Positions 32,951 to 48,582 of a DNA stretch of 64,000 nucleotides are shown here, piece after piece. The notes under the pieces were generated by a model. That model saw only the letters and a program-made list of their open reading frames with translations. It made no database searches and had not been told where the DNA came from. The stretch's first letter is position 1, and the number at the start of each line of letters is the position of its first letter. The stretch spans positions 2,296-66,295 of the forward strand of contig JBAZGA010000005.1 of assembly GCA_041653115.1 (NCBI GenBank). The letters are read 5' to 3'. This DNA is from Candidatus Omnitrophota bacterium. Its GTDB lineage: Bacteria; Omnitrophota; Gorgyraeia; Gygaellales; Profunditerraquicolaceae. Both the position numbers and the translations under genes were made by a program.

Positions 32951-33457
32951 ATGGCTTTTAATAAGAAAAAGCTGGAAGAAAGAGTTATGGATGTGGACGC
33001 CTCAATGCAGGGAGAGTTAAGTTTTAGGGACCCGGTAAACCTGCGGATTAACGGCAGGTTTGAAGGGACGCTGAATACGCGGGGCACCTTGACCATCGCC
33101 TCAACCGCGAATGTAGTGGCGGATATTATCGGAGATAATATTATCGTCGGCGGCAGGCTCAAGGGCCGCGTCACCGCCAAAGAAAGCCTGACTCTTCTGC
33201 CCAGCGCGGTTCTCGAAGGCGACATATATCCTTTAAAGTTAAACGTCGCGGAAGGCGCGATATTCGAAGGCCGCTGCATCATGCTGCATGATTTTTTGAA
33301 TGCGGAAGAGCTGGCGCGTTACCTGGAAGTGGACTTGAATTCCATCCTGGAGTGGGCCAGCGCAGGCAAGGTGCCGGGGGTCAAAGAAGGGGAGCGCTGG
33401 AGATTCGAGCGTAAGGCAATAGATACGTGGGTGGCTTCGGGTAAGGTAGGAAAATAA
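32951..33457 (+). CDS. Bactofilin-domain protein fused to a C-terminal excisionase-family HTH (HTH_17-like)
   Basis: Bactofilin beta-helical repeats (GTLTIASTANVVADIIGDNIIVGGRLKGRVTAKESLTL...EGDIY) then LNAEELARYLEVDLNSILEWASAGKVPGVKEGERWRFERKAIDTWV. Confidence 0.7.
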   Translation: MAFNKKKLEERVMDVDASMQGELSFRDPVNLRINGRFEGTLNTRGTLTIASTANVVADIIGDNIIVGGRLKGRVTAKESLTLLPSAVLEGDIYPLKLNVAEGAIFEGRCIMLHDFLNAEELARYLEVDLNSILEWASAGKVPGVKEGERWRFERKAIDTWVASGKVGK

Positions 33458-33469
33458 CTTAAAAAATAA

Positions 33470-33778
33470 ATGACGGAAGAAAAACTTTTAACCATCAGGG
33501 ATGCCGCTTTAATCCTGGGCATCTCCGAAAAAGAGATTATTGATTTGGCCGAAAGCGGCACAATTCCCGCCTATAAAATCGGCGGCGTATACTTAAGGTT
33601 TAAACGCCAGCAGATAGAGGAAGCCAAAAAAACCTTAAACCTCGCCCCTAAGCCGGATGCCCGCCTGGAAAGGCGCTCGTGGAAAGACGGATTCAGCGAT
33701 TTTTTCTATTTTAACGATTTTTATATAATTTCCATCTTGATAATAGCCTTGATACTTTGGATAATATTCAAAGGGTAA
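33470..33778 (+). CDS. Excisionase-family HTH protein with C-terminal transmembrane anchor
   Basis: LTIRDAALILGISEKEIIDLAESGTIPAYKIGGVYLRFKRQQI (HTH_17-like) then the hydrophobic tail YIISILIIALILWIIF. Confidence 0.6.
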   Translation: MTEEKLLTIRDAALILGISEKEIIDLAESGTIPAYKIGGVYLRFKRQQIEEAKKTLNLAPKPDARLERRSWKDGFSDFFYFNDFYIISILIIALILWIIFKG

Positions 33779-34457: not shown

Positions 34458-34870
34458 TTTCCTTAAAGGAAGGAATAAGATTCCACGGGCATTTGGGGCC
34501 TTACCTGGTTTTGGGGATACGCGCCGGGGAACTGGCGCTGAAAAAATTAAACTGTAAAAAATATTTTGGCCTGGAGGTCAAGGTTTGGGGTGCCGGCGAA
34601 AAACCCAAATCCTGCCTGATTGACGGCTTGCAGCTTTCTACGGGAGCGACTTACGGAAAAGGCAATATCAGTAAATTTAACGGCAGGGTAATCAGGATCG
34701 GCTTTAAAAATAAGGTCAGCCGCAGGAAACTGATTTTAAAATTTAAGAATACCCTGCTGAAGGACTTGGCAGAAGCGGACACGCATCAAAAAGCAGAGAG
34801 ATTGGCAAGGCAATTATATAAAAAAAATCATGCGCAGCTTTTTAACTTAAAACTTACCTCCGGAGATTGA
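34454..34870 (+). CDS. FmdE-domain protein (formylmethanofuran dehydrogenase subunit E-like)
   Basis: EGIRFHGHLGPYLVLGIRAG N-terminal FmdE signature; 138 aa. Confidence 0.6.
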   Translation: MISLKEGIRFHGHLGPYLVLGIRAGELALKKLNCKKYFGLEVKVWGAGEKPKSCLIDGLQLSTGATYGKGNISKFNGRVIRIGFKNKVSRRKLILKFKNTLLKDLAEADTHQKAERLARQLYKKNHAQLFNLKLTSGD

Positions 34871-36201
34871 AGATGGCTTTATCAGGGCTGGATATCTATA
34901 AGCTTTTACCGAAAACGAACTGTAAAGAATGCGGGTTTGCGACCTGCCTTGCCTTTGCCATGGCATTGGCAAAGAAGGCAGTAAGCATTGACAAATGCCC
35001 TTATTTAAGCGCAGAAGCAAAAAAACAATTAGAGGCATCGAGCCTGCCTCCGGTAAAATTAGTTACTATCGGCGCGGGAGAAGATAAATTAGAGGTCGGT
35101 AATGAGACGGTGCTCTTCCGCCACGAAGAGAAATTCCACCACCCCTGCGGTATTGGCTTTATTATTGAAGACACCTTAGGCGATAACGAAATAAAGCAGA
35201 AGTTAGAAAAAATTAAGCGGTTGAAATTCGAGCGCGTGGGGCAGGAATTAAACGTAAACCTGGTGGCGATAAAACAGGCGGGCAGCGGAGAAAGGTTCGT
35301 AAAAACAGTGCAACTGGCAACACAGAATAGCCGGCTTGGCCTGGTATTGATGAGCGAGGATTTAACCGCCTTAAAGCAGGCTGCGGAATTTACGAAAGAG
35401 AGAAGGCCTTTAATCTATCACGCAAGCAAAGGCAACCTCGCCGGAGTTGCGCAAATTGCGAAAGAATTTAATCTGCCGCTGGTTGTTTCCGCGCCTGATT
35501 TAGAGGCAGTTTCCATCCTGGCCGGGGAATTAAACAGCCGAGGGCTGAATGATTTAATCCTGGAGACCGGGATTAAGCCGATAAGAGATAGAATCTGGGA
35601 TTTGACTCAGATAAGAAGACAGGCGCTGAAAAAATCCAACCGCAGCTTAGGATATCCGGCCTTAACAATTATCGACAAGAAAGACCCTGAGGAAGAAGCA
35701 GCCGAGGCAGCGACTTATATCGCCAAATACGCGGGAATTATTTTGCTGCGCGGCATTGAGCCGTGGCAGATTTTATCCCTTTTGACTTTAAGGCAGAATA
35801 TCTACACCGACCCGCAGAAGCCGCTGCAGATTGAGCCCAAGCTTTACAGCGTCGGTCAGGTAACCGATAAATCGCCGGTACTGGTGACTACCAACTTTTC
35901 CTTGAGCTATTATACGGTATTGGGGGAAGTGGAGGCCAGCAAGATACCTTCTTATATCGTCAGCGTGGATACCGAAGGGATGTCGGTATTGACTGCCTGG
36001 GCAGCGGAAAAATTTACCCCGGAAAAAATCGCGGATTCCCTGAATAAATTCGGCGTCAAAGAGGCGGTTTCGCACAACAGATTAATTATCCCCGGATATG
36101 TGGCGGTGATGAGCGGGGATTTGGAAGAGAAGTCCGGACGGGAGATTATCGTCGGGCCCAAAGAAGCCGCCGGCATACCGTCATTTTTAAAAAAATTGTA
36201 A
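34867..36201 (+). CDS. acsC: Corrinoid iron-sulfur protein large subunit (acetyl-CoA decarbonylase/synthase gamma subunit)
   Basis: N-terminal [4Fe-4S] motif CKECGFATCLAFAMALAKKAVSIDKCPYL, TIM-barrel and B12-binding regions. Confidence 0.85.
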   Translation: MKMALSGLDIYKLLPKTNCKECGFATCLAFAMALAKKAVSIDKCPYLSAEAKKQLEASSLPPVKLVTIGAGEDKLEVGNETVLFRHEEKFHHPCGIGFIIEDTLGDNEIKQKLEKIKRLKFERVGQELNVNLVAIKQAGSGERFVKTVQLATQNSRLGLVLMSEDLTALKQAAEFTKERRPLIYHASKGNLAGVAQIAKEFNLPLVVSAPDLEAVSILAGELNSRGLNDLILETGIKPIRDRIWDLTQIRRQALKKSNRSLGYPALTIIDKKDPEEEAAEAATYIAKYAGIILLRGIEPWQILSLLTLRQNIYTDPQKPLQIEPKLYSVGQVTDKSPVLVTTNFSLSYYTVLGEVEASKIPSYIVSVDTEGMSVLTAWAAEKFTPEKIADSLNKFGVKEAVSHNRLIIPGYVAVMSGDLEEKSGREIIVGPKEAAGIPSFLKKL

Positions 36202-36208
36202 CCATAGG

Positions 36209-38137
36209 ATGGAAAAGTTCAAAGTTACATTTTACCCGGACAATAAGACCATAGAGGTAGAAAAGGGCAAGACTATCCTGACGGCTGCCATTTCTGCCGG
36301 AGTCTATATTAATTCCAGCTGCGGCGGAGACGGCGTTTGCGGCCGCTGCAAAGTAATTTTAAAAAAAGGCGAGGTAATCAGCCAGCCCACCGGAAGATTA
36401 AGCCTGGAAGAACGCAGGCAGGGGGTCCATCTTGCCTGTCTTTCTACGATAGAGGGCGATTTGGAGGTGGAGATTCCTCCGGAATCGAGGTTAGACTTAG
36501 AGCAGCTCAACCCCGAAGAAGTTGATTTAAGGTTAAAGGGCCTTTATTCGAAGGCCGAAGAAATCGAGCCGGTAAAATCAATTTTAGGCGAAGAAATTTT
36601 TCACCACTCTCCTTTAGCCACTAAGCTATATCTGGAATTACCTCAACCGACCCTGGAAGATACGGTCAGCGATCTGGAAAGATTATACCGCGCCATCCGT
36701 AAAATCCAGGATATCCCGGTGATGCAGGCCGGCCTGGCCAATATCCGCGGGTTAGGCGAGTTGTTACGTGATGCTGAATGGAAAATTACCGTGACTTTAG
36801 GCAAAAGAAACGGCACCACGGAAGTCGTGCTGGTTGAGCCGGGGGATACCTCGCAGCATAATTACGGCCTGGCCTTTGACATCGGGACTACGACTATTTC
36901 CGGGCAGTTGGTGGATTTACGCACCGATAAGGTTTTAGGCAGCAAAGCCGCTTACAATAAACAGGCGGCATTCGGCAGCGATATCATCACGCGTATCATT
37001 TATGCCCGGGAAGAGGACGGCCTGGAAAAGCTCCACCATGCCGTGGTTGACGTAATGAACGGGATGTTACATGAATTAATCCAGGAGCACTCAATAGACC
37101 TGAATGACGTGAACTGCGCCCTTTGCGCGGGCAATACCACGATGATGCATCTTTTGCTGCGGGTTGACCCGACATATATCAGGAGAGAACCCTATGTGCC
37201 CACGGCGAATTTTGTCCCGACGGTGCGCGCCAGCGAAGCCGGGATAAAAATAAATCCGCGCGGGCTTTTATCCTGCGTTCCGGGCGTCTCCAGTTATGTA
37301 GGCGGCGATGTCACTGCCGGGGTTTTATCCTGCGGCCTGGATAACGAAGAAGATTTATGCCTTTTGATTGATATCGGCACCAACGGCGAAATAGTTTTAG
37401 GCAGCAGGGAGTTTTTGATTTCCGCTTCTGCTTCTGCCGGACCGGCATTTGAAGGCTCGGGTGTTGCCTGCGGCATGCGTGCCAGCCGCGGCGCCATCCA
37501 AAAAATAAAAGTCAGCCCCAAAGATTTCAACGTTGCTTACAGCGTAATCGGCGAAGAAGAGCCCCGCGGCATCTGCGGCTCGGGTTATATTGACCTGATT
37601 GCCGAAATGCTGCGCGCCGGCCTCCTGGATAAAAGCGGGAAGCTCAAGGCAATAAAGAACAGGCGTATCCGTGATGGCGAAACAGGCAAGGAGTTTGTGG
37701 TGGTTTTCAAGGAAGATACAGGCACGGCTTCCGATATCGTGATTAATGAAGCAGATATTGAGAACTTGAAACGCGCCAAGGCAGCGATTTACTCGGCAGC
37801 CGCCAGCCTGGTCAGGCGTATGAGCCTCGATTTTAGGAAAATTAAGAAATTTTTTATTGCCGGCGGGTTCGGCACTTATATTGATGTCGCCAATGCCATT
37901 GCTATCGGCTTGCTTCCGGACTTGGATAAATCAAGATTTATTTTTGTCGGTAACAGTTCCTTGGCCGGAGCGCGGCAGATTCTTCTTTCTTACGAAGCGA
38001 TGAAAAAGGCGGATGAGATTGCCCGCAAGATGACTTACTTTGAGCTCTCGGTTGACCCCGGATATATGGATGAATATATGGCGGCTTTATTTTTCCCGCA
38101 TACGGATTTGGCAAAATTCCCCAGTGTGAAAGTATAA
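36209..38137 (+). CDS. acsV: Reductive activator of CFeSP (RACo/AcsV; 2Fe-2S ferredoxin plus ASKHA ATPase, DUF4445)
   Basis: Plant-type [2Fe-2S] motif SCGGDGVCGRCKV followed by a DUF4445/ASKHA-type domain. Confidence 0.8.
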   Translation: MEKFKVTFYPDNKTIEVEKGKTILTAAISAGVYINSSCGGDGVCGRCKVILKKGEVISQPTGRLSLEERRQGVHLACLSTIEGDLEVEIPPESRLDLEQLNPEEVDLRLKGLYSKAEEIEPVKSILGEEIFHHSPLATKLYLELPQPTLEDTVSDLERLYRAIRKIQDIPVMQAGLANIRGLGELLRDAEWKITVTLGKRNGTTEVVLVEPGDTSQHNYGLAFDIGTTTISGQLVDLRTDKVLGSKAAYNKQAAFGSDIITRIIYAREEDGLEKLHHAVVDVMNGMLHELIQEHSIDLNDVNCALCAGNTTMMHLLLRVDPTYIRREPYVPTANFVPTVRASEAGIKINPRGLLSCVPGVSSYVGGDVTAGVLSCGLDNEEDLCLLIDIGTNGEIVLGSREFLISASASAGPAFEGSGVACGMRASRGAIQKIKVSPKDFNVAYSVIGEEEPRGICGSGYIDLIAEMLRAGLLDKSGKLKAIKNRRIRDGETGKEFVVVFKEDTGTASDIVINEADIENLKRAKAAIYSAAASLVRRMSLDFRKIKKFFIAGGFGTYIDVANAIAIGLLPDLDKSRFIFVGNSSLAGARQILLSYEAMKKADEIARKMTYFELSVDPGYMDEYMAALFFPHTDLAKFPSVKV

Positions 38138-38138
38138 A

Positions 38139-38891
38139 ATGAGTTATACCATCGCTATTGCCGGAAAAGGCGGCACAGGCAAAACCACTATCGCAGCGCT
38201 CCTGGTGAGGCTGCTCAAGGAAAAGAAGCTGGGTTCGATTCTGGCAGTGGATGCCGACCCGAACAGCAATTTAGGCGAGGCCTTAGGCGTAGAAGTAAAA
38301 GAAACTATCGGCTCTATCCTTGATGATATCGCGGCGCATCCGGAGAGAATCCCTTCCGGGATGCCTAAAGAGCGCTTCATCGAATATGAAGTCCAGACCG
38401 CGGTCCGCGAGGCAGAGGGTTTTGATGTCCTGACAATGGGTAAGCCCGAAGGCCCGGGCTGTTATTGCTATGTCAATAACGTCTTAAGAAACCTGATGGC
38501 GCGCCTGATTAAAGACTACGATTATATCGTGATTGATAATGAGGCGGGTTTAGAGCACCTTTCCCGCCGGACCACCAGAAGCGCCGAGGCGTTGGTGGTA
38601 GTTTCAAACATTACAGCCGCAGGCTTAAAAGCTGCCGGAAGAATCGGCGAACTAGCCAGAGAGCTGGATATAAAAATAAAGAAGAGCCTCCTGGTAGTAA
38701 ATTGCTCCGAAAAAAATCCGGCAAAAGAAACGCTTAAAGAAATGGGTTTGGATTATATCGGTAATATACCCCGGGATAGGCGGATAGAAAAAATCAGCCT
38801 GAACGGAAATTCATTACTTGCATTAGCCGATGATGCGCAAAGCATCAGCGCCTTGCGTAAAATAGGAGATAAGATATGGCAGCAGAGTTGA
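38139..38891 (+). CDS. cooC: CooC/AcsF-type MinD-family ATPase (Ni-insertion accessory protein)
   Basis: IAIAGKGGTGKTTIAALL deviant Walker A and CxC metal motif GPGCYCYVNN. Confidence 0.8.
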   Translation: MSYTIAIAGKGGTGKTTIAALLVRLLKEKKLGSILAVDADPNSNLGEALGVEVKETIGSILDDIAAHPERIPSGMPKERFIEYEVQTAVREAEGFDVLTMGKPEGPGCYCYVNNVLRNLMARLIKDYDYIVIDNEAGLEHLSRRTTRSAEALVVVSNITAAGLKAAGRIGELARELDIKIKKSLLVVNCSEKNPAKETLKEMGLDYIGNIPRDRRIEKISLNGNSLLALADDAQSISALRKIGDKIWQQS

Positions 38892-39808
38892 TGTTGGAAA
38901 AATGGCCGGGTGAGGTAGCGGTGATTACTATCGGCGCGACTAAAGGCGAAGGGGGCAGCCGCTCCCGGGCGATTAAGGTCGGCGGCCAAAAGGCCCTGCC
39001 GTTTTTATCTGCCGAAGGCGCAATCCCGCATCGGCCGGTAATCGCCTTTGAAATCTGGGATACAGCGCCCACAGATTGGCCGGAAGAATTAAACAAGGAT
39101 TACCGCGATGTTTTTAGCGAGCCCCTGGCCTGGGCGGAAAAATGCGTAAAGAAATACCAGGCAGGAATTTTATGTTTGAAATTACAGGCAGCGCACCCGG
39201 ATTTCGGGGATAAGAGCCCGGATGCGGAAGCGAAATTAGTTTCAGAATTGCTCAAAAAAATAGATGTGCCGCTGATTATCTTGGGCTGCGGAGATGACGC
39301 CAAGGATAACCTGGTTTTACCGGCAGTCTGCGAAGCAGCCAAGGGCGAACGCTGCCTGATCGGGAGCGCCGTACAGGATAACTATAAAACCCTGACTGCC
39401 GCGGTGCTGGCAGACGGCCACAATATTGTCGCCGAATCGCCCATTGATATCAATATCGCCAAACAGCTGAATATTTTAATTTCCGATATGGGCCTGCCTC
39501 TGGAGCGCATCGTGATTAATCCTACTATCGGCGCACTGGGCTATGGCCTGGAATACGCCTATTCAATTATGGAGCGCAGCCGTTTGGCAGCCCTGGCAGG
39601 AGACAAAACCGTAGCCAGCCCGTTTATCTGTCTGGCAGCCCAGGAATCCTGGCGGGCAAAAGAAGCTAAAATAGATTCCGAGCACGGGATAATCTGGGAA
39701 ATAGTGACTGCTACTGCGCTGCTTCAGGCAGGAGCGGATATCCTGGTGATGCGCCATCCCCGGGCAATCGAAAAAGTGAATAAGCATATAGATGAATTAA
39801 CCGGATAG
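38876..39808 (+). CDS. acsD: Corrinoid iron-sulfur protein small subunit (acetyl-CoA decarbonylase/synthase delta subunit)
   Basis: About 310-aa TIM-barrel protein between cooC and acsE in the canonical acs order; profile consistent with AcsD/CdhD. Confidence 0.7.
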   Translation: MAAELMLEKWPGEVAVITIGATKGEGGSRSRAIKVGGQKALPFLSAEGAIPHRPVIAFEIWDTAPTDWPEELNKDYRDVFSEPLAWAEKCVKKYQAGILCLKLQAAHPDFGDKSPDAEAKLVSELLKKIDVPLIILGCGDDAKDNLVLPAVCEAAKGERCLIGSAVQDNYKTLTAAVLADGHNIVAESPIDINIAKQLNILISDMGLPLERIVINPTIGALGYGLEYAYSIMERSRLAALAGDKTVASPFICLAAQESWRAKEAKIDSEHGIIWEIVTATALLQAGADILVMRHPRAIEKVNKHIDELTG

Positions 39809-39819
39809 AGAGCAGGCAG

Positions 39820-40608
39820 ATGTTTATTATCGGCGAGCTGATTAACGGGATGTATAATAATATAGGTAAGGCGATTAAGGCAAAGGATAAGGCCGCCATC
39901 CAAAAGTGCGCCTTTGAGCAACTTCAGGCAGGAGCGGACGCCCTGGATGTCAATTGCGGCCCGGCATCGCGCGAGCCGCTTTCGGATATCCAATGGTTGG
40001 TCCAGGCTATCCAGGAGGTAACGGATAAGCCGCTTGCTCTTGATTCCAGCAAGCCGCAGGTGATTGAATCGGGCTTAAAAGTACTGAAAAATAAAGCAAT
40101 TATCAATTCTACCACCGCAGACCCGGAAAAGCTGGAAGTCCTTGTGCCCTTAGCGCAGAAATATAATGCCAAGCTCATCGGCCTGACCATCAGTTCCAAG
40201 GGTATCCCGCAGAATAAAGACCAGCGCCTGGAATTGGCCGCCAATATCGTGGCTACCTGCGCTGACGCGGGGCTTCCTATTGAAGACCTTTATCTTGACC
40301 CGATTGTGCTGCCGGTGAACGTTGCCCAGGCGCAGATGCGCGATATCCTGGAATCCATCCGCGAATTCAAAATCATTTCCGACCCTTCGCCTAAAACCAT
40401 TGTCGGCTTAAGCAATGTCTCCCAGGGAACCTGCGTCAGAAGCCTGGTTAACCGCACCTTCCTGACTATGGCAGTGGCTTTTGGCCTGGATGCCGCCATC
40501 CTTGACCCCAAAGATAAAGAGCTGGTAGATGCCGCCATTACCGCCGAGCTGATTCTTAACAAGCAGATTTACTGCGATTCCTATTTAGAGGCCTACCGGA
40601 AGAAATAG
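39820..40608 (+). CDS. acsE: Methyltetrahydrofolate:corrinoid/iron-sulfur protein methyltransferase (pterin-binding)
   Basis: MFIIGELINGM...GADALDVNCGP...DPIVLPV pterin-binding barrel signatures. Confidence 0.8.
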   Translation: MFIIGELINGMYNNIGKAIKAKDKAAIQKCAFEQLQAGADALDVNCGPASREPLSDIQWLVQAIQEVTDKPLALDSSKPQVIESGLKVLKNKAIINSTTADPEKLEVLVPLAQKYNAKLIGLTISSKGIPQNKDQRLELAANIVATCADAGLPIEDLYLDPIVLPVNVAQAQMRDILESIREFKIISDPSPKTIVGLSNVSQGTCVRSLVNRTFLTMAVAFGLDAAILDPKDKELVDAAITAELILNKQIYCDSYLEAYRKK

Positions 40609-40769: not shown

Positions 40770-41288
40770 ATGAAAAAAGCAAAAATCAGGATAAGGTTAT
40801 TAATTTGGATACTGCTGTTTATTACCGTATCGGTTTGGCTGGCTCTTGAATTCAACAAGAAGCGGCTTTATATCGAAAACTTACAGCTGGAACTAAGCCT
40901 GGAGCGCCGCCTAAAGGAATTCGTTCAGCAGGAACTCGACTCCACAAAGAATAGGCTGGAGAGAATTAGGGCAGAATTAGGCCAGACCCGGAAACATCTC
41001 AATAAGGTTAATAACAAGCTTGCCGCAGCAGAGAGTAATAACACTAAGTTGCTTGAAGAAAAAAGGGCCCTGGAAGCAAAATTACATTCTTTAACGGAAT
41101 TAAAGGCAGCTATCCGGCAGGTCAAGAAAGAGATGCGCCAGGAACGCTGCCAGCAGATTCTGGCGGAAAAAGAAACGCAGAATGAAGCCGATGCTTATAG
41201 GTTAGCCAGCGGAAATCGCGGCTTTATTTTGAAGGATGGCAAACCGACACACAAGCCCAGAGTGAGAATTGAAGTCCAGTCTGATTAA
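40770..41288 (+). CDS. Membrane-anchored coiled-coil protein (hypothetical)
   Basis: N-terminal TM (LLIWILLFITVSVWLAL) and about 120 aa of heptad-rich coiled coil. Confidence 0.5.
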   Translation: MKKAKIRIRLLIWILLFITVSVWLALEFNKKRLYIENLQLELSLERRLKEFVQQELDSTKNRLERIRAELGQTRKHLNKVNNKLAAAESNNTKLLEEKRALEAKLHSLTELKAAIRQVKKEMRQERCQQILAEKETQNEADAYRLASGNRGFILKDGKPTHKPRVRIEVQSD

Positions 41289-41329: not shown

Positions 41330-41515
41330 ATGAATAAGAAATTACTTTTGACCAAGGAAGCTGCGGAAGTTTTAAGGGTTAGCGAGGAATACCTGCGTTC
41401 TCTTATAAGGAAAAAGAAGATTCCCGCTTATAAAGAGGGCCGCCGCGGCGGCTACAGGATTCCCGCGGTGGAAATCGATAATTATATCGCAAGCAGGTAT
41501 GACAAAGGGCTATGA
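41330..41515 (+). CDS. Excisionase-family HTH mini-protein (HTH_17/AlpA-like, 61 aa)
   Basis: LLLTKEAAEVLRVSEEYLRSLIRKKKIPAYKEGRRGGYRIPAVEIDNYI; RBS AAAGGAG. Confidence 0.65.
   Translation: MNKKLLLTKEAAEVLRVSEEYLRSLIRKKKIPAYKEGRRGGYRIPAVEIDNYIASRYDKGL
41445..41505 (+). repeat. Direct repeat copy A (inside the 3' end of the HTH_17 gene); att-like
   Basis: About 80% identity to 43340-43400 over about 60 nt, including an identical GGAAATCGATAATTATATC core. Confidence 0.6.
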
Positions 41516-41579
41516 GCGGAATCCCAAAAAGCTAAAAATTTATATTGCAATTTATTAACAAATATGTTAAACTTTTACT

Positions 41580-42218
41580 ATGAAATTTGATGAATTCCTC
41601 AAGAGGGTGCGGGGCTTACCGGTAATAGATGCCGAAAACCTGCTTGCCGGAGTCGTTAACCCGGCTCCCGTTAAAGTGCAGTTGAGCCGCTGGCGTAAGG
41701 CCGGAAAGTTAATCAAACTCAAGAATAACATTTACTTATTAGCTGAAAATTTCCGCAAAGCGGATATTTATGAACCGTACATTGCTTCGGCGCTCAAAAG
41801 GCCTTCGTATATCAGCCTTGAGAAAGCTTTTGAATACCACGGGCTTATCCCCGAAGCGGTTATGGTTTATACCTGCGTTACCACTAAGCGGCCAGGAAAA
41901 ATTATTACGCCCATCGGCACGTTTGATTACCGCCATATTAAAAGTAGCCTTTTCTGGGGGTATGATTCGGTTATTGTAAACAAGCAGCAGGCATTTATCG
42001 CAGGCCCTGAAAAGGCCCTGTTGGATTTTTTCTATTTAAGGGGCCTGCGGGTTGACGAGGCCTATTTGGAAGAGATGCGGTTGCAAAATTTCAGAAAAAT
42101 CAATTGCGTTAAATTACTTCAATATGCCGGGAGGTTTAAAAGCCCCGGCGTCCTGAAGGCATCTGAGATTATTAAAAAATACGTTTGCGGGCGCAGGAAG
42201 GAAGAAAAATATTTATGA
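41580..42218 (+). CDS. abiEi: AbiEi-family antitoxin / transcriptional regulator (type IV TA)
   Basis: N-terminal AbiEi_4-like profile (LSRWRKAGKLIKLKNNIYLL) and ATGA coupling to the downstream nucleotidyltransferase. Confidence 0.7.
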   Translation: MKFDEFLKRVRGLPVIDAENLLAGVVNPAPVKVQLSRWRKAGKLIKLKNNIYLLAENFRKADIYEPYIASALKRPSYISLEKAFEYHGLIPEAVMVYTCVTTKRPGKIITPIGTFDYRHIKSSLFWGYDSVIVNKQQAFIAGPEKALLDFFYLRGLRVDEAYLEEMRLQNFRKINCVKLLQYAGRFKSPGVLKASEIIKKYVCGRRKEEKYL

Positions 42219-43021
42219 AAGATTACCTGTTGGAGCTGGTATCGCAGAAAGAGGGGTATAATGCCAGGCTGAATACTATGCGGGAGTATTTGCAGGCATA
42301 TATCTTAAGGGTAATGCAGGATGAGGGCGTATTCCGCTCGGCGGCATTTTTAGGCGGTACGGCCCTTAGGTTTTTATACGGCCTGCCGCGTTTCTCCGAA
42401 GACCTGGATTTTTCTTCGGCAAAAAAACAGGCGGTTCCCTTCGCGGCATTGCTGAAAAAGATTGCCTCCGAACTTTCAGCAGCCGGCTACGATGCTTCAG
42501 TTGTTTACAACGACAGAAAAACTGTGAACTCAGCTTTTATCAAGTTCTCAAACCTGATGTTTGAAGCGGGGATTTCGCCTGTAAAAAGCCAGAAATTTTC
42601 CATTAAGGTTGAGATTGACACCCATCCCCCGGAAGGGGCTGTCCTTACGACCCAGATTGTAAACAAATATTTCCCGGTTTCTTTTTTATCCTATGAGATT
42701 GAATCGCTTTTTGCCGGGAAGCTGCATGCGTTATTGTCCCGCAGATACGCCAAGGGCAGGGATTATTTTGATTTAGGCTGGTATTTGTCAAAATGGAGCG
42801 CTATAGAGCCGAATTTCAAACTGCTCAAGAATGCCCTTAGACAGACAGGGTGGAAGAAGGATTTTCCTGCACAAGATAACTGGAGGCGGTTAATCCGCGG
42901 GATTGTTGAAGGAGTAAATTGGGCTAAGGTTAAGCGGGACGTCGAAGGGTTCCTGGAAAACCCTTCTGATGCAGGCATATTTACTAAGGAGAATACCCTC
43001 CGCCTTTTGCAAAATACCTAA
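42215..43021 (+). CDS. abiEii: AbiEii/AbiGii nucleotidyltransferase toxin (DUF1814)
   Basis: LGGTALRFLYGLPRFSEDLDF hallmark motif; start set at the ATGA overlap (track: 42185). Confidence 0.8.
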   Translation: MKDYLLELVSQKEGYNARLNTMREYLQAYILRVMQDEGVFRSAAFLGGTALRFLYGLPRFSEDLDFSSAKKQAVPFAALLKKIASELSAAGYDASVVYNDRKTVNSAFIKFSNLMFEAGISPVKSQKFSIKVEIDTHPPEGAVLTTQIVNKYFPVSFLSYEIESLFAGKLHALLSRRYAKGRDYFDLGWYLSKWSAIEPNFKLLKNALRQTGWKKDFPAQDNWRRLIRGIVEGVNWAKVKRDVEGFLENPSDAGIFTKENTLRLLQNT

Positions 43022-43046
43022 GCTATATAAAACGAAGGAACGCGCT

Positions 43047-43337
43047 ATGCCGGAATTCACAGTCAATGAAATAGTAGATGGCGATACCTTTAAGGTAGCA
43101 GGCGGATGGGAATGGCAGGGTATGACCGGGGAATCCGTGCGCCCCAGAGGTTATGATACGCCGGAAAAAGGGGAGCCCGGCTTTGAAGAAGCAAAGCAGA
43201 AGCTATCGGATTTAATCCTGAACAAGAAAGTGGATGCGAAAGATATTAAAGCAGTAGACGTATACGGAAGGCTGATTGCGGATATCTATTGCGAGGATAA
43301 GAACCTCGCGGATTATTTCCCTGAGTATAAGAGTTAG
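43047..43337 (+). CDS. Minimal staphylococcal-nuclease-like (SNase/thermonuclease fold) protein, 96 aa
   Basis: VDGDTF, RPRGYDTPE and DVYGRLIADIY align to SNase Ca-site/catalytic segments (IDGDT, VDTPE, KYGRGLAYIY); RBS AAGGAA; start moved from 42969 to ATG 43047. Confidence 0.65.
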   Translation: MPEFTVNEIVDGDTFKVAGGWEWQGMTGESVRPRGYDTPEKGEPGFEEAKQKLSDLILNKKVDAKDIKAVDVYGRLIADIYCEDKNLADYFPEYKS

Positions 43338-43339
43338 TT

Positions 43340-43400
43340 GCGGCGGATACCGGATTCCAGCTGCGGAAATCGATAATTATATCAGGTAGCGGTATAACAA
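43340..43400 (+). repeat. Direct repeat copy B (non-coding remnant of the HTH_17 gene's 3' end); att-like
   Basis: Matches 41445-41505; lies directly after the SNase-like gene. Confidence 0.6.
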
Positions 43401-43461: not shown

Positions 43462-44352
43462 TTGAAGAGTATGGAAATAAAGAGTATCTTAAAATATTTT
43501 CTTGGTATAGAAGATAGGTGGAGTATCGGAATATATACCGGAGATTCTTTCTGTCATTTTTACCCTCCGGAAAATATTAAGAATCCTGTTTTGACTGCGA
43601 AAGATATTACAGACAGAAGGGCAGTTTTTGTTGCGGATCCTTTTATGCTAAAGGAAGAAGGTATATGGTATATGTTTTTTGAAGTTTTATCTTTTTGGCG
43701 TTCTAAAGGCGAAATTGGTCTTGCTACCAGCAAGGACGGTTTTAATTGGTCCTACCGCCAAATCGTTCTTAGCGAGCCTTTCCATTTGTCTTATCCATAT
43801 GTTTTTAAATATAATGGTGAATTTTATATGATTCCTGAGAGCTACGAAAAGAAAGCCGTGCGGTTATATAAAGCGACTCGTTTTCCTAATCAATGGGAAT
43901 TTTCAGCGAATCTTTTACTAGGGCATGATTTTCAAGATTCTTCCATATTTAACTATAGGAACAAATGGTGGCTATTTACTTGCCCTACACTACAGAATAA
44001 TGAGTTAAAGCTATTCTATGCCGAAGACCTGCGGGGGCCCTGGCTAGAGCACGCCCGCAATTCGGTTATCAAAGATAATCCTTATGCCGCTCGTTGCGGC
44101 GGGAGAGTATTGGTATTGGATAATAAGGTTATCAGGTATGCTCAAGATGACTACCCGGTTTATGGGAGACAGTTATGCGCATTCGAAATTACTAGATTAA
44201 CGACTAACGAATATGAAGAAAAAGAATGTCCCGGCAATCCAGTATTAAAGGCGAGTGGTAGCGGCTGGAATAAGAGCGGTATGCACAATATTGACCCTCA
44301 TTTTCTCGGCCAGGAGAGGTGGTTTGCCTGCGTAGATGGTAACGACCGATAA
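43462..44352 (+). CDS. Beta-propeller GH43/GH130-like protein (family also annotated as glucosamine inositolphosphorylceramide transferase-like), putative
   Basis: ADPFMLKEEGIWYMFFE...YMIPES...WWLFTC pattern typical of 5-bladed beta-propeller glycosidase/phosphorylase folds; assignment is tentative. Confidence 0.4.
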   Translation: MKSMEIKSILKYFLGIEDRWSIGIYTGDSFCHFYPPENIKNPVLTAKDITDRRAVFVADPFMLKEEGIWYMFFEVLSFWRSKGEIGLATSKDGFNWSYRQIVLSEPFHLSYPYVFKYNGEFYMIPESYEKKAVRLYKATRFPNQWEFSANLLLGHDFQDSSIFNYRNKWWLFTCPTLQNNELKLFYAEDLRGPWLEHARNSVIKDNPYAARCGGRVLVLDNKVIRYAQDDYPVYGRQLCAFEITRLTTNEYEEKECPGNPVLKASGSGWNKSGMHNIDPHFLGQERWFACVDGNDR

Positions 44353-45608
44353 TGAGCCAAAATAAATCTTTAAAATTATTTAAGGATTATTCAACAGTAA
44401 TCTTCGGAGTCGGCCTGGGGCGAGGGCTGTCTTTGCTTGCTTCACTCATTTTGGCGCGCGCTTTAGGCGTGGAAAATTTCGGCATTTTTTCATTATTTTT
44501 CACCGTAATGACATTAATTTGGCAACTACCAATCAGCATTGATTCGACTTATGTCCGTTATGTAAAGGCGGAATCGGAAGAAAATAAGATTAGCTATCTT
44601 AGGACAAGCTTTTTAATAAAAATATTAATCTTCCTATCTCTACTGATTCTGGCTTTTCCCCTGGGTTTTTTGCTGTCGTATTATGTCTTCGGCAAGCCGG
44701 AATTGGTATTTTACATAAGCATCGCCGTCATTTCTGGGGCCTTTCTAAGCGTATTTTCCAGTATTTCCGGGCTATATCAGGGCGAAGAAGATTTTTTTAG
44801 GTTCTCACTTGTAAATCTTTTGTTTTATCTGGCGGTAATTTTAGTAATAGTGCCTATGTTTTTCTTTAAACTGGGGCTTACTTTAAATGCCGCAATCTCG
44901 GTAAACTTCTTTGTTGCGGCGCTGGCCGGTTTCTTGGGATACTTTTGGATATTCAGGAGGATAAAATCATTCTCTCCGGTGCATTTCTCACTATTTGCCG
45001 ATATGCTTCATTTCGGTAAATGGCTATTGGCCTCCAATTTTACTTATATAATCCTGCAACGGCTGGATATACTCGTCTTGGCAAAATACGTGGATTTCGC
45101 AAGCATAGGCATCTATTCGGCGGCAGTTAGGGTTGCCATGCTGGCATCACTATTTACCGGAAATATTTCCTCGATACTTATGCCGCGCGGCAGCCAGGCC
45201 CTAAAGTCCCGCCAGCATTTATAATCCTGCCTTAAAGAAGCGTTGTCACTATCCGGGGTATTGGTTTTTATTATCATCCTGATAATAATAGCTTCTCCGG
45301 CAATCATTAAGTTCTTCTTCGGGATTGAATATATGGGCGCCTTGCCCTTCAGCAGAATACTGCTCTTAGAGTCGGTATTCACGGTCTTATATACTCCTTT
45401 AATGTATCTTTTTTATGCCCGGAACCAAAGTAAGACGGTTTTTGGCTTAGGGTTGACAATGTTAACGGGAACCATCTGCGGCTTACTGCTCCTCGTTCCC
45501 AGATATGGCTTGACGGGAGCCGCGGTATCAATCGTTTTTTCTTCCTGTTGTGGCTTAATATTTATTATCTTTATGTCTTATAAAACCATAAGGAATATCC
45601 ATGGCTGA
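44352..45608 (+). pseudogene. wzx: Wzx-like polysaccharide flippase (MOP/polysacc_synt family) interrupted by a single in-frame TAA at 45222-45224
   Basis: ORFs 44352-45224 and 45243-45608 are in the same frame, both polytopic membrane segments, and together have Wzx-like length (about 418 aa). Confidence 0.6.
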
Positions 45609-46311
45609 TTTCGGGGAATTATCGAGACTGGCAGCTAGATACGGTTATGACGCAAATCACAATTTGCGTTATATGGCACTGGCCCAATTAGTAAAGAGTC
45701 ACGATATTAAAGATATATTAATATTGGGTTGCGGCAAGGGTATCCTGGAATACATTCTTCCCGAAGAAGTGAGGTGTACTTCCATAGATATAGACCAAAG
45801 AGCGATAGAGATTGCCAGAGAAATAAACAAGGAAAAAAGAAACCGTAACTTTATAGTAGCAGATATATTTAGAGTAATAGACGTATTGCGTAAACAGTTT
45901 GATGGAGTGATAGTTTCGGAAGTTATAGAGCATGTGGAAGATGATAAAAGAGTATTGGACATAGCCCGGCAATTTATGAAGCCGCAAGACAGCCTTTTCA
46001 TACTGACGGTCCCAAATCTAAACCGCTTCAGAAATAAGATCCATACGGCGTTTGGAGGAAAAATCGAGTTTATGTCAGACAGTCATATCAGAGAATATAA
46101 CCGTGGCGACATAGCCAATCTTCTTATCGCTGCTGGATTTTGGATAATTAAGACCGATTATGTTTATTTTAGGTTCCCCAAAGAATGCTTAATCAGACCG
46201 TTTATCGGCCTGAATAGTTTACTGCGTAAGATTATGCTGAAGGTTTTCCGGCTCTGGGCGGATTATATTATTGTTGTTTCGGTTATGAAGCAGGATGAGG
46301 GAAGGCCTTGA
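45601..46311 (+). CDS. Class I SAM-dependent methyltransferase
   Basis: ILILGCGKGILE...IDIDQRAIEIARE motifs I/II. Confidence 0.75.
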   Translation: MADFGELSRLAARYGYDANHNLRYMALAQLVKSHDIKDILILGCGKGILEYILPEEVRCTSIDIDQRAIEIAREINKEKRNRNFIVADIFRVIDVLRKQFDGVIVSEVIEHVEDDKRVLDIARQFMKPQDSLFILTVPNLNRFRNKIHTAFGGKIEFMSDSHIREYNRGDIANLLIAAGFWIIKTDYVYFRFPKECLIRPFIGLNSLLRKIMLKVFRLWADYIIVVSVMKQDEGRP

Positions 46312-47273
46312 ATATGCAGAAAGTTTCAGTAATCGTTCCGGTAAAGAATGAAGGACGGCACATCGCGGATTTATTGGGTTCCCTCCAGGCGCAATCCGTA
46401 AAGCCCGATGAAATAATCATAGTGGACGGCGGCTCTACTGACGGCACTGCCGGGATAGTTGAAGATTGCAGGAAAAAGGGAATGCCGCTTAGGTTAATAG
46501 CCGTTACCGAAGCATTGCCGGGAAAAGGCCGGAATATCGCTATTGAAAATGCAAAAAATGAAATCATCGCGATGACCGACGGAGGGATTATCCTAGACAG
46601 GGATTGGTTGAAGAACATAGTCGCGCCTTTTGCGGAAGATTCTTCCCTTGAAGTCGTGCATGGGCTGCGAGGTTGCCGCGCCGTAACTACCTTTGAGGAA
46701 TGTTTTGCGCTGGTCTATTTGCCGGCTAATCGGGCGCTAAAATCCCCGTTTAGAAATTTCCCGTTTGTCGCATCCACGGCGCTGAAGAAATATGTTTGGG
46801 AAAAAGCCGGGAAATTTAGAGAGGACTTGCGGGCGGGGGAAGACCTGCTTTTCCTGAAGAAATTAAAGGAGTCTAAATTCAGGACTATAGTTGCCTATAA
46901 TGCTGTGGCATATTGGCGCCCGCGCTCTTCCTTTAGAGAGGGCTTTTCGCTTGCTTTCAAATATGCCGTATGCGATGCAAAGACTCGCCTCCATCTTTCC
47001 AGACATTTCAGAAAATATTTAATGTATTCGCTTGGGGCGCTACTCGCCTATGCGGGCCTAAAAAATCCCGTCTGGTTCGTTCTTTTGGCCGCCGGGTTTG
47101 TATTGGATATTCTATTGGTTTGCAGGAAGCATTGGAATGAATTCTTGAAGCTTGTCGGGAGAAATCCGGGAAATCTTTTCACCATCACCGCCATCATTAT
47201 TATCCTGGATATCGCAGGCCTTTGCGGTTTCTCGGCAGGACTTATAAGGAAGATTTTTAAGCATGCCAATTAA
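46308..47273 (+). CDS. GT2 glycosyltransferase with C-terminal TM segments
   Basis: VSVIVPVKNEGRHI...IIIVDGGSTDGT...MTDGG. Confidence 0.8.
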   Translation: MNMQKVSVIVPVKNEGRHIADLLGSLQAQSVKPDEIIIVDGGSTDGTAGIVEDCRKKGMPLRLIAVTEALPGKGRNIAIENAKNEIIAMTDGGIILDRDWLKNIVAPFAEDSSLEVVHGLRGCRAVTTFEECFALVYLPANRALKSPFRNFPFVASTALKKYVWEKAGKFREDLRAGEDLLFLKKLKESKFRTIVAYNAVAYWRPRSSFREGFSLAFKYAVCDAKTRLHLSRHFRKYLMYSLGALLAYAGLKNPVWFVLLAAGFVLDILLVCRKHWNEFLKLVGRNPGNLFTITAIIIILDIAGLCGFSAGLIRKIFKHAN

Positions 47274-48582
47274 CGTGAAACTATTTTTCGCAGCCATAAT
47301 CGGGTTAGTCGCCTCGCTCCTGACTTTATTGCCCAGGACAGCCAACGAAAAAATAATTGTTTCCACTATGTTTATTGTCGCTATGCTTACGGCCGGACGC
47401 CGTGCGACTCTCATTGTGTTATTTTTGGTTTTGCGGCCCTGCCTAGATTTGATAGCCGAACAACAAGTTGCCGGCATTTGGAATAGCGCCTCCTTAGCCA
47501 CTATTTTTTTCATCCTGACGGCAGGGCAGGCATTATTAAGGAAAGAGAGTATCGCAAAGATTGCCGCAAACCGGCTCATACTTGACGCAAATAGGGTCTT
47601 TTTAGCTTTTCTGGTTCTTTCTCTGATCTCTTTTGTAAATTCACGAGACCTCTTGACCTCTTTCTCCGATTGGCTGCGGCTGGTTTCTATTATCGTAATG
47701 TTCAATTATGCCTTCTTATACTTTTCCGAAAGCAGGGCATTTGCAAAGTTATTTATTGCGATTCTGCTATCCGGCGTTGTGCCGCTTGCTTTAGGGATGT
47801 ATCAATATCTTTTTTATAAAGGCAATCTTTACACTCCCGGGTTTAACAGAATATACGGCACCTTCTTGCACCCGAATGTATTGGCAGAATACCTGGTCAT
47901 TTTATTTGTGGCGGTCCTGTATTTCCTTAAAGAGCACAGGTCTGGAAAGTCGCTGCAGCTTGTTTTGTATTCATTCCTCGCCATAGCTCTCTTTGAAATC
48001 TTTCATACTTATACGAGAGGGGCATGGATAGCGCTGGCACTATCCCTGTTCGTCATCAGTATCACTTATAGGAAACATCAGAAAATAATTTATTTTGTCC
48101 TGATTCTTACCGTTATGCTGGTCATCTTTCCGGCTATCCAAAAGCGCTTTATGGATATCAGGGCCCATAACCCGGAATTAATGAGTTCCTGGGAATGGCG
48201 GCTGATGGTTTGGAATGATACAAAAAAAGAAATAAGCAAACACGCCGTTATCGGGCATGGATTAGGGATGTATCAAAAAGGGTTTACTTTTATGGCCCAT
48301 AACGATTATTTGCGGCTCGCCTATGAAACGGGCATATCAGGATTAATTATCTATCTATTGTTTCTCGCGACTATCCTTGGTTGCTCAATAAGGAAGATAG
48401 TGCATGAAAAGAATAAGTATGCTAAAAATAGGTATGTGGCGATATCCGGGCTTATGGTTGCTTTTTTGGTTATGGGGGCGGCTGATAATCTTGTGCGTTC
48501 CACAGTGGTCTTGTTGTACTTATTTTGTGTAATAGGCGCCTTGGTTGGTTACCATCCGGACATTTCACATGAAAAAAGTTGA
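47263..48582 (+). CDS. O-antigen ligase/polymerase family membrane protein (Wzy_C domain), copy 1
   Basis: Polytopic protein with TRGAWIALALSLFVIS Wzy_C-like core and a periplasmic loop. Confidence 0.7.
   Translation: MPINVKLFFAAIIGLVASLLTLLPRTANEKIIVSTMFIVAMLTAGRRATLIVLFLVLRPCLDLIAEQQVAGIWNSASLATIFFILTAGQALLRKESIAKIAANRLILDANRVFLAFLVLSLISFVNSRDLLTSFSDWLRLVSIIVMFNYAFLYFSESRAFAKLFIAILLSGVVPLALGMYQYLFYKGNLYTPGFNRIYGTFLHPNVLAEYLVILFVAVLYFLKEHRSGKSLQLVLYSFLAIALFEIFHTYTRGAWIALALSLFVISITYRKHQKIIYFVLILTVMLVIFPAIQKRFMDIRAHNPELMSSWEWRLMVWNDTKKEISKHAVIGHGLGMYQKGFTFMAHNDYLRLAYETGISGLIIYLLFLATILGCSIRKIVHEKNKYAKNRYVAISGLMVAFLVMGAADNLVRSTVVLLYLFCVIGALVGYHPDISHEKS

Follow-up and report, generated by a model that had tools for sequence, protein, structure and literature searches.

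Staphylococcal nuclease (SNase, also called thermonuclease or Nuc; PDB 1STN family, Pfam family PF00565) is a secreted virulence or nutrient nuclease and a textbook model of protein folding, in which loss of the C-terminus is destabilizing. In eukaryotes, Tudor-SN proteins carry several full-size SN domains within one long polypeptide, and RP4-type plasmids encode the SNase homologue ParB. AbiE is a type IV toxin–antitoxin and abortive infection system composed of two genes, which encode the antitoxin or regulator AbiEi and the nucleotidyltransferase toxin AbiEii. Here we describe a 64,000-nucleotide stretch of DNA from a Candidatus Omnitrophota bacterium (GenBank assembly GCA_041653115.1, contig JBAZGA010000005.1, positions 2,296 to 66,295 of the forward strand; hereafter the window, with positions counted from its first nucleotide), in which a short open reading frame (ORF) at positions 43047 to 43337 directly follows an AbiE pair. 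Its predicted product is a shortened member of the SNase superfamily, which we call mini-SNase. We favor the reading, with a probability of roughly 0.6, that mini-SNase is a free-moving single-gene passenger of defense islands that has come to lie next to an ordinary AbiE system of two genes, and that it is not a third AbiE component.

The extent of the gene was settled by comparison with its relatives. A mechanical list of ORFs opened the frame at 42969, giving a protein of 122 residues, whereas all homologues (n = 316) open with M-x-E-F at the position equivalent to 43047. Because the homologues begin there and the longer frame overlaps abiEii, we assign the start to 43047 and reject the 122-residue ORF. 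The abiEii stop codon occupies positions 43019 to 43021, which leaves a gap of 25 nucleotides before the mini-SNase ATG. The N-terminus holds no signal peptide or hydrophobic segment (the maximum Kyte–Doolittle mean over 15 residues is 0.73, and β-strand 1 begins at residue 3), unlike that of a group of longer homologues (loci L038-L080) in which a hydrophobic N-terminal segment is present, and the window protein is predicted to be cytoplasmic. A preliminary description of this DNA, made from the letters alone, had proposed a leaderless SNase-fold protein of 96 residues, about two thirds the size of thermonuclease, with its own ribosome-binding site 25 nucleotides after abiEii. These features are borne out (96 residues are about 64% of the 149 in mature SNase), and the SNase motifs quoted there are real and align to SNase.

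The proposed fold is likewise upheld. The PF00565 profile scores mini-SNase at 25.4 bits, above its cut-off of 21 (E = 2.1e-5), although the match is confined to positions 4-65 of the 107 in the profile, and a phmmer search of PDB chains aligns mini-SNase residues 5-87 with SNase chain residues 13-93 (E = 0.011). In this alignment D11, R32, D37, T38, E40, and R75 are equivalent to SNase D21, R35, D40, T41, E43, and R87, such that the catalytic Arg, Glu, and Arg, whose loss would have spoken against the preliminary description, are all retained. An AlphaFold2 model computed with 41 homologues in the alignment has a mean predicted local distance difference test (pLDDT) score of 94.8 and consists of a five-stranded oligonucleotide/oligosaccharide-binding (OB) fold barrel, one long helix (helix 1), and a helix of four residues after the last strand. 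By sequence and by model, the ORF encodes a minimal, cytoplasmic member of the staphylococcal nuclease (thermonuclease, OB-fold) superfamily.

Mini-SNase differs from Nuc in more than its lack of a signal peptide. The sequence stops near the equivalent of SNase residue 100, and so the C-terminal third is gone, including helix 3, the greater part of helix 2, and residues Y113 and Y115, which contact the nucleotide. The helix 2 and helix 3 sub-domain that holds these tyrosines is absent from the model, and in its place are a Trp-rich hairpin (GGWEWQG) and an NLADYFPEYK tail, both of them conserved. The isoelectric point (pI) is 4.5 for mini-SNase versus 9.5 for SNase. Moreover, members of the family occur in defense islands, whereas Nuc is a secreted enzyme. 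The solved relatives are all full-size SNase domains, among them Tudor-SN (SND1, PDB 3BDL; the truncated chain 3BDL_A has 537 residues), relative to which mini-SNase is a single, shortened, prokaryotic domain.

We then considered the place of mini-SNase relative to AbiE. Upstream lies an authentic abiEi–abiEii pair, in which the abiEii ATG at 42215 overlaps the abiEi stop codon by four nucleotides, as is typical of AbiE. The preliminary description took mini-SNase to be the third gene of this module and suggested a three-component variant or an effector swap. Were mini-SNase a third subunit that co-evolved with the abortive infection system, or an effector swapped into it, the gene would be expected to lie where it does, directly 3′ of abiEii in the same direction, 25 nucleotides away with its own ribosome-binding site, and within one cassette with AbiE that is bounded by copies of an HTH_17 (excisionase-family) gene. 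Furthermore, read-through transcription from abiEi–abiEii is likely because the 25-nucleotide gap holds no recognizable σ70-like promoter or terminator. The adjacency noted earlier therefore stands, and co-transcription is probable, but the three-component module itself finds no comparative support, for the reasons given below.

A conserved linkage between AbiE and SNase was sought in both directions, using tblastn, blastn, and hidden Markov models (HMMs), and was not found. From the side of the nuclease, we assembled 110 mini-SNase loci, including the window, from genome, metagenome, and viral collections, and surveyed their neighborhoods by simple ORF calling and BLAST clustering; many of these loci are on short contigs. 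AbiE is present in none of the other 109 loci. A tblastn search with the AbiEi, AbiEii, and HTH_17 proteins of the window gave no match in 194 SNase-related loci, and an HMM built from 120 AbiEii homologues matched the window alone among 943 neighbor ORFs. From the side of AbiE, we assembled 43 AbiEii loci, comprising 19 contigs with close homologues and 24 more distant loci from viral contigs, and the mini-SNase HMM matched none of them (0/43, the distant viral loci included). Thus, the survey of AbiEii neighborhoods for SNase-like ORFs that had been proposed at the outset returned no case.

The closest AbiE relatives give the same picture at higher resolution. The eight closest AbiEii homologues (73-80% amino acid identity) are found on 19 contigs in nine contexts, each with a complete pair of a 212-residue AbiEi and AbiEii, and the gene 3′ of AbiEii is different in each context (Fic, a reverse-strand gene, MacB/FtsX, a PilZ cluster, ShlB, DUF134, PATR, and others); neither an SNase gene nor an HTH_17 gene stands beside AbiEii in any of the nine. 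At the DNA level, blastn alignments to 19 related AbiE loci (72-77% identity) open at 41527-41545 and, where the locus is full-length, run to 42886-43010, covering the promoter region and the two genes, and in none of the 19 does homology reach the mini-SNase gene at 43047. In the metagenome-assembled genome JAGYNB01, AbiE (L209) and mini-SNase (L001) are both present but on separate contigs. Literature keyword searches returned no report of AbiEii together with an SNase. AbiE in the window is an ordinary, self-contained two-gene unit; mini-SNase is a separate unit that lies outside it and accompanies it in none of the other loci compared. The three-component reading is largely refuted by these comparisons, and we hold a third subunit or swapped effector to be highly improbable.

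What does recur is mini-SNase itself, as a family of nearly constant length. A search of 5.8 billion proteins returned 316 homologues, and 83 of the 120 matches listed are exactly 96 residues long, with nearly all others at 94-99. When 1.84 billion cluster representatives were searched with a profile of the family, 212 matched at E ≤ 1e-10 (median 97 residues, mostly 85-110), which places the family far beyond chance. We considered whether mini-SNase is a C-terminally truncated SNase or a pseudogene and rejected both, since its homologues have a uniform length of about 92-99 residues and the NLADYFPEYK tail is conserved. Mini-SNase is thus an uncharacterized minimal form of a known nuclease fold that is already annotated generically in databases, where NCBI labels its homologues ‘thermonuclease family protein’. 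The NCBIfam model ‘calcium-activated nuclease EcnA’ also matches weakly, and a literature search returned no paper on EcnA.

The columns that are invariant in the 41-sequence alignment are D11, G12, D13, T14, F15, W21, R32, Y36, P39, E40, L58, D71, R75, and F91. Among 106 genomic family members, R32 and R75 are retained in all 106, D11 in 105, and E40 in 104; position 37 is held by Asp in 63 members and by Asn in 42, and position 38 by Thr in 55 and by Ala in 50. This pattern bears on the possibility that the protein is a non-catalytic OB-fold binder of nucleic acids or a regulator, for instance one that modulates nearby restriction–modification (R-M) or defense genes, with the scaffold kept as in the SN-like domains of Tudor-SN. 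The residues that match SNase D21, R35, E43, and R87 are fixed or almost fixed by selection across sequences that span about 45% identity, which is hard to explain without catalysis, and the non-catalytic SN-like domains of extended Tudor proteins share just 4-16% identity with the model. We consequently view a purely binding role as unlikely.

The hosts of mini-SNase are uncultured Omnitrophota, Elusimicrobiota, Desulfobacterota, Nitrospira, Gammaproteobacteria, bacteria of the candidate phyla radiation, and several archaeal phyla, a distribution that is patchy and horizontally transferred. A phage origin was also considered and rejected, given that a phage genome collection yielded no match and that only 2 of 34 matches on viral contigs belong to the family. 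Fusions of mini-SNase to other domains are mostly uninformative as clues to function. In one rare case, a protein of 294 residues (P0390), the mini-SNase core (residues 86-180) stands behind a winged-helix segment that resembles Mrr_N below threshold (E = 8.7e-4), and this fusion would fit a restriction-type, DNA-targeting context. Some contigs carry two paralogues, either in tandem (L083, 489-1061; L087, 4645-5285) or about 13 kb apart on the same contig (L088 and L093, on Ga0222665_1000375), and such pairs may hint at hetero-oligomers or repeated cassettes.

The neighborhoods of the 110 loci, in which neighbors were clustered by BLAST and then annotated with Pfam and PADLOC, are dominated by R-M genes. 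HsdR occurs in 31 loci, HsdM/S in 26, and an N6_N4 methyltransferase in 12, and Dcm and D12 methyltransferases and the restriction enzymes NgoPII, CfrBI, and HinP1I are further neighbors. The most frequent single neighbor, in 38 loci, is an RtcR-like activator with CARF, sigma-54 AAA+, and HTH_8 domains. Small tyrosine recombinases are present in seven loci and a ThsB-type TIR protein in five, four of which include a PDC-M50A partner. The mini-SNase family behaves as a single-gene cargo of defense islands and small mobile elements, with R-M operons as its most frequent neighbors.

The RtcR association is concentrated in one part of the family. Sequence clustering separates an RtcR-linked subclade of 42 sequences, 33 of which are RtcR-linked, and the other five RtcR-linked loci fall into two smaller clusters (the 38 loci are L013, L016, L018, L027, L029, L032-L035, and members of L102-L156). 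The gene order is RtcR-like, mini-SNase, hsdR, hsdM, hsdS. In 32 of the 38 loci, a canonical σ54 promoter (TGGCAY-N5-TTGCW) lies 53-77 nucleotides 5′ of the SNase ATG, and hsdR begins 4-78 nucleotides past the SNase stop codon wherever it was separately called; in one example (L033, 4320-11525) the mini-SNase has 94 residues and the hsdR gene is of the EcoEI type. Hosts of these operons include diverse Proteobacteria, Desulfobacterota, Nitrospira, and others. Defense superoperons led by RtcR homologues and including type I R-M have been described (Bell et al. 2024, eLife, PMC11090510), and mini-SNase of this sister subclade is the promoter-proximal gene of operons with the order given above. 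An SNase component has zero occurrences in that report, and our literature keyword searches found nothing on SNase with defense islands.

The window protein belongs to a distinct subclade of 27 sequences with mixed contexts. These include type II R-M (SNase followed by NgoPII, or SNase, a methyltransferase, and CfrBI), type I R-M with YgjP, a TIR/PDC-M50 pair, integrases, and, once only, AbiE. In several loci PDC-M50, a PADLOC candidate system made up of the membrane protein M50A and the ThsB-like TIR protein M50B, is directly 5′ of mini-SNase (L086, 1934-2844; L088; L090; L118), with a tyrosine recombinase of 195 residues another 2-3 kb upstream. Unlike the RtcR superoperons, the window has no RtcR-like gene, no σ54 promoter near the SNase gene, and no R-M homologues. 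The acidic pI of the window protein had also raised the idea of a DNA mimic or anti-restriction protein, which was rejected because net charge reaches only about −2 to −6 and members of the RtcR-linked clade range from neutral to basic.

Siting in defense islands, next to TIR/PDC-M50, R-M, or AbiE genes, would suit a stand-alone toxic or suicide nuclease, acting either as a one-gene abortive infection effector or as the toxin of a toxin–immunity pair. Inducible control of one subclade by RtcR and σ54 would fit as well, and an ORF of 160 residues that recurs downstream (cluster C7, six loci) is a candidate immunity protein. However, the family as a whole shares no conserved partner gene, the window has none (the next features are an HTH_17 remnant and then polysaccharide genes), and the PADLOC defense models give no match to the mini-SNase family. 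We judge this role to be quite unlikely.

The recombinases raise a further alternative, in which mini-SNase is a maintenance nuclease of mobile elements, like the ParB nuclease of RP4-type conjugative plasmids, which is found together with a resolvase. In addition to the seven loci with small tyrosine recombinases, three carry RepA-like genes, and there is a cluster of ParA-like ATPases (C8) that Pfam did not confirm. The sole matches in a plasmid collection are thermonuclease genes beside a recombinase, and the protein annotated as a ‘thermonuclease family protein’ (pJJ1886_4, WP_023363244.1) is, like ParB, an SNase homologue, with 38% identity to mini-SNase over about 90 residues. In contrast to the minimal, chromosomal mini-SNase, such plasmid proteins have 167 residues and a complete SNase domain, and no recombinase homologue was detected in the window. 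Moreover, most mini-SNase loci lack a recombinase, a third are chromosomal RtcR and type I R-M operons, and, as noted above, phages and viral contigs yielded almost no members. A maintenance function is accordingly very unlikely.

How mini-SNase came to lie beside AbiE is suggested by the local anatomy of the window (Table 1). AbiEi, AbiEii, and SNase are bracketed by an intact HTH_17 gene and by a remnant copy of its 3′ end, in which the HTH_17 HMM matches model positions 40-55 only. The pairwise alignment of the two copies extends from 44 nucleotides at 89% identity to about 60 nucleotides with a short divergent patch. In the simplest reading, recombination between HTH_17 copies would have opened a slot for cargo, now filled by AbiE and mini-SNase, immediately 5′ of a polysaccharide cluster that begins at 43462. 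The G+C content is about 0.51 in the Wood–Ljungdahl genes on the 5′ side, 0.43-0.47 in the 40.6-43.4 kb interval, and 0.36-0.44 downstream, a profile that is consistent with an island.

Table 1. Positions of mini-SNase, AbiE, and HTH_17 features in the window.
Feature	Coordinates	Strand	Remarks
HTH_17 (excisionase-family) gene, intact, 61 aa	41330..41515	+	Pfam HTH_17 E = 1.6e-13; left edge of cassette
Direct-repeat copy 1, 3′ end of HTH_17 gene	41445..41505	+	44 nt at 89% identity to copy 2
Mobile two-gene AbiE unit	about 41530..43010	+	DNA homology to 19 related loci
abiEi, antitoxin/regulator, 212 aa	41580..42218	+	PADLOC AbiEi E = 2.3e-53; kept as 212-aa partner of AbiEii in L195-L213
abiEii, nucleotidyltransferase toxin, 268 aa	42215..43021	+	Pfam AbiEii E = 7.4e-27; PADLOC E = 2.6e-64; start backed by homologues
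Shine–Dalgarno-like AAGGA	43035..43039	+	7 nt 5′ of mini-SNase ATG; read directly from the sequence
mini-SNase gene	43047..43337	+	ATG 43047, TAG 43335-43337; 96 aa, leaderless, pI about 4.5, 10.9 kDa
Direct-repeat copy 2, out-of-frame 3′ HTH_17 remnant	43340..43400	+	begins 3 nt past SNase stop

Close homologues of the 61-residue HTH_17 protein (80-89% identical) are very abundant in Omnitrophota, and HTH_17 genes punctuate arrays of accessory genes there, several per contig. One contig (P0303) has the order HTH_17, Fic, AAA_14/DUF4143, HTH_17, AAA_14, 23S_rRNA_IVP, HTH_17, and HTH_17 genes are also found within glycosyltransferase clusters (L216, 3348-3551, is among the HTH_17 sites). We considered HTH_17 as a partner of SNase across the family and rejected it, because an HMM of the Omnitrophota HTH_17 family had no significant match in any other SNase locus. 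Two more HTH_17-type proteins are encoded at 32951-33778 of the window, as intact paralogues and not fragments. One has 168 residues and a terminal segment judged by eye to be HTH_17-like, and the other, of 102 residues, has an HTH_17 domain at its N-terminus (HMM E = 7e-4) and a transmembrane helix at its C-terminus. The idea that position 33470 marks a split HTH_17 gene was discarded, since this is the separate, intact paralogue of 102 residues.

Other genes flank the cassette. On the 5′ side, the genes at 34867-40608 resemble those of the Wood–Ljungdahl (acetyl-CoA) pathway as assigned from translations alone, without confirmation by Pfam, and the apparent products are corrinoid Fe-S protein subunits, a CooC-type ATPase, a reductive-activase-like protein of 642 residues with a ferredoxin domain, and a pterin-binding methyltransferase-like protein of 262 residues. 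The low-G+C island also contains, at 40770-41288, a gene that is flanked by the methyltransferase and HTH_17 genes. Its product of 172 residues has a transmembrane segment at the N-terminus and an extended coiled coil, and gives only weak PADLOC matches of the coiled-coil type (JetC, LmuB, DndD). On the 3′ side of the remnant, positions 43462-48582 (G+C 0.36-0.44) hold a polysaccharide or O-antigen-type cluster with a GINT1_N-like protein (Pfam E = 1.5e-61) and, judged by eye, a flippase-like membrane protein, an S-adenosylmethionine-dependent methyltransferase, a glycosyltransferase, and an O-antigen-ligase-like protein.

Returning to the reading of mini-SNase as a mobile defense-island passenger, the following course of events can be proposed. 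The gene would have been carried into the HTH_17-bounded cassette beside an autonomous AbiE system, from which it would now be transcribed by read-through. In its product, D11, D37, and T38 would serve as metal residues and R32, E40, and R75 as catalytic residues, and by analogy with SNase, in which the metal is Ca2+, the enzyme may hydrolyze DNA or RNA in a manner dependent on a divalent metal, leaving 3′-phosphate ends. It might then act as an accessory nuclease that cleans up or degrades fragments alongside whichever defense system it adjoins. Uninfected cells could be spared by low free Ca2+, by a weak affinity for nucleic acids given the low pI, or by both, and oligomerization possibly makes up for the lost C-terminal sub-domain.

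Note that several points weigh against this interpretation. The nuclease activity of the family is a prediction from sequence and model, and the C-terminal third of SNase with its two nucleotide-contacting tyrosines is absent. Truncated SNase fragments are unfolded in vitro, and activity may consequently need oligomerization or a partner. About 40% of members carry Asn in place of D37, the equivalent of Y85 varies, and the window protein is acidic. With regard to AbiE, the survey could have overlooked a very divergent AbiEii, and the Pfam tallies of 225 neighbor ORFs cover the top 25 families only and do not by themselves exclude a lone divergent copy. Finally, adjacency and probable co-transcription may leave room for a local functional interaction with AbiE.

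A bolder proposal can be drawn from the RtcR-linked clade, in which mini-SNase takes the promoter-proximal slot that RtcB and RtcA occupy in the canonical Rtc operon. This placement suggests, speculatively, a part in making or clearing nucleic-acid fragments linked to CARF sensing. The mini-SNases of about 96 residues might then be an unrecognized accessory of R-M and defense operons that would make or destroy 3′-phosphate fragments read by CARF domains, or would finish off restricted DNA, and one beside AbiE could potentiate it. We consider this proposal doubtful.

For the window, the analysis removes a tempting but unsupported call of a new defense system, as AbiE is ordinary and the nuclease is an unrelated neighbor. 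For the family, it reveals that the SNase fold occurs in nature as a conserved cytoplasmic protein of two-thirds size, found repeatedly beside R-M genes, including type I operons of the σ54/RtcR kind. If active, mini-SNase would be among the smallest stand-alone nucleases and a candidate accessory factor in inducible restriction.
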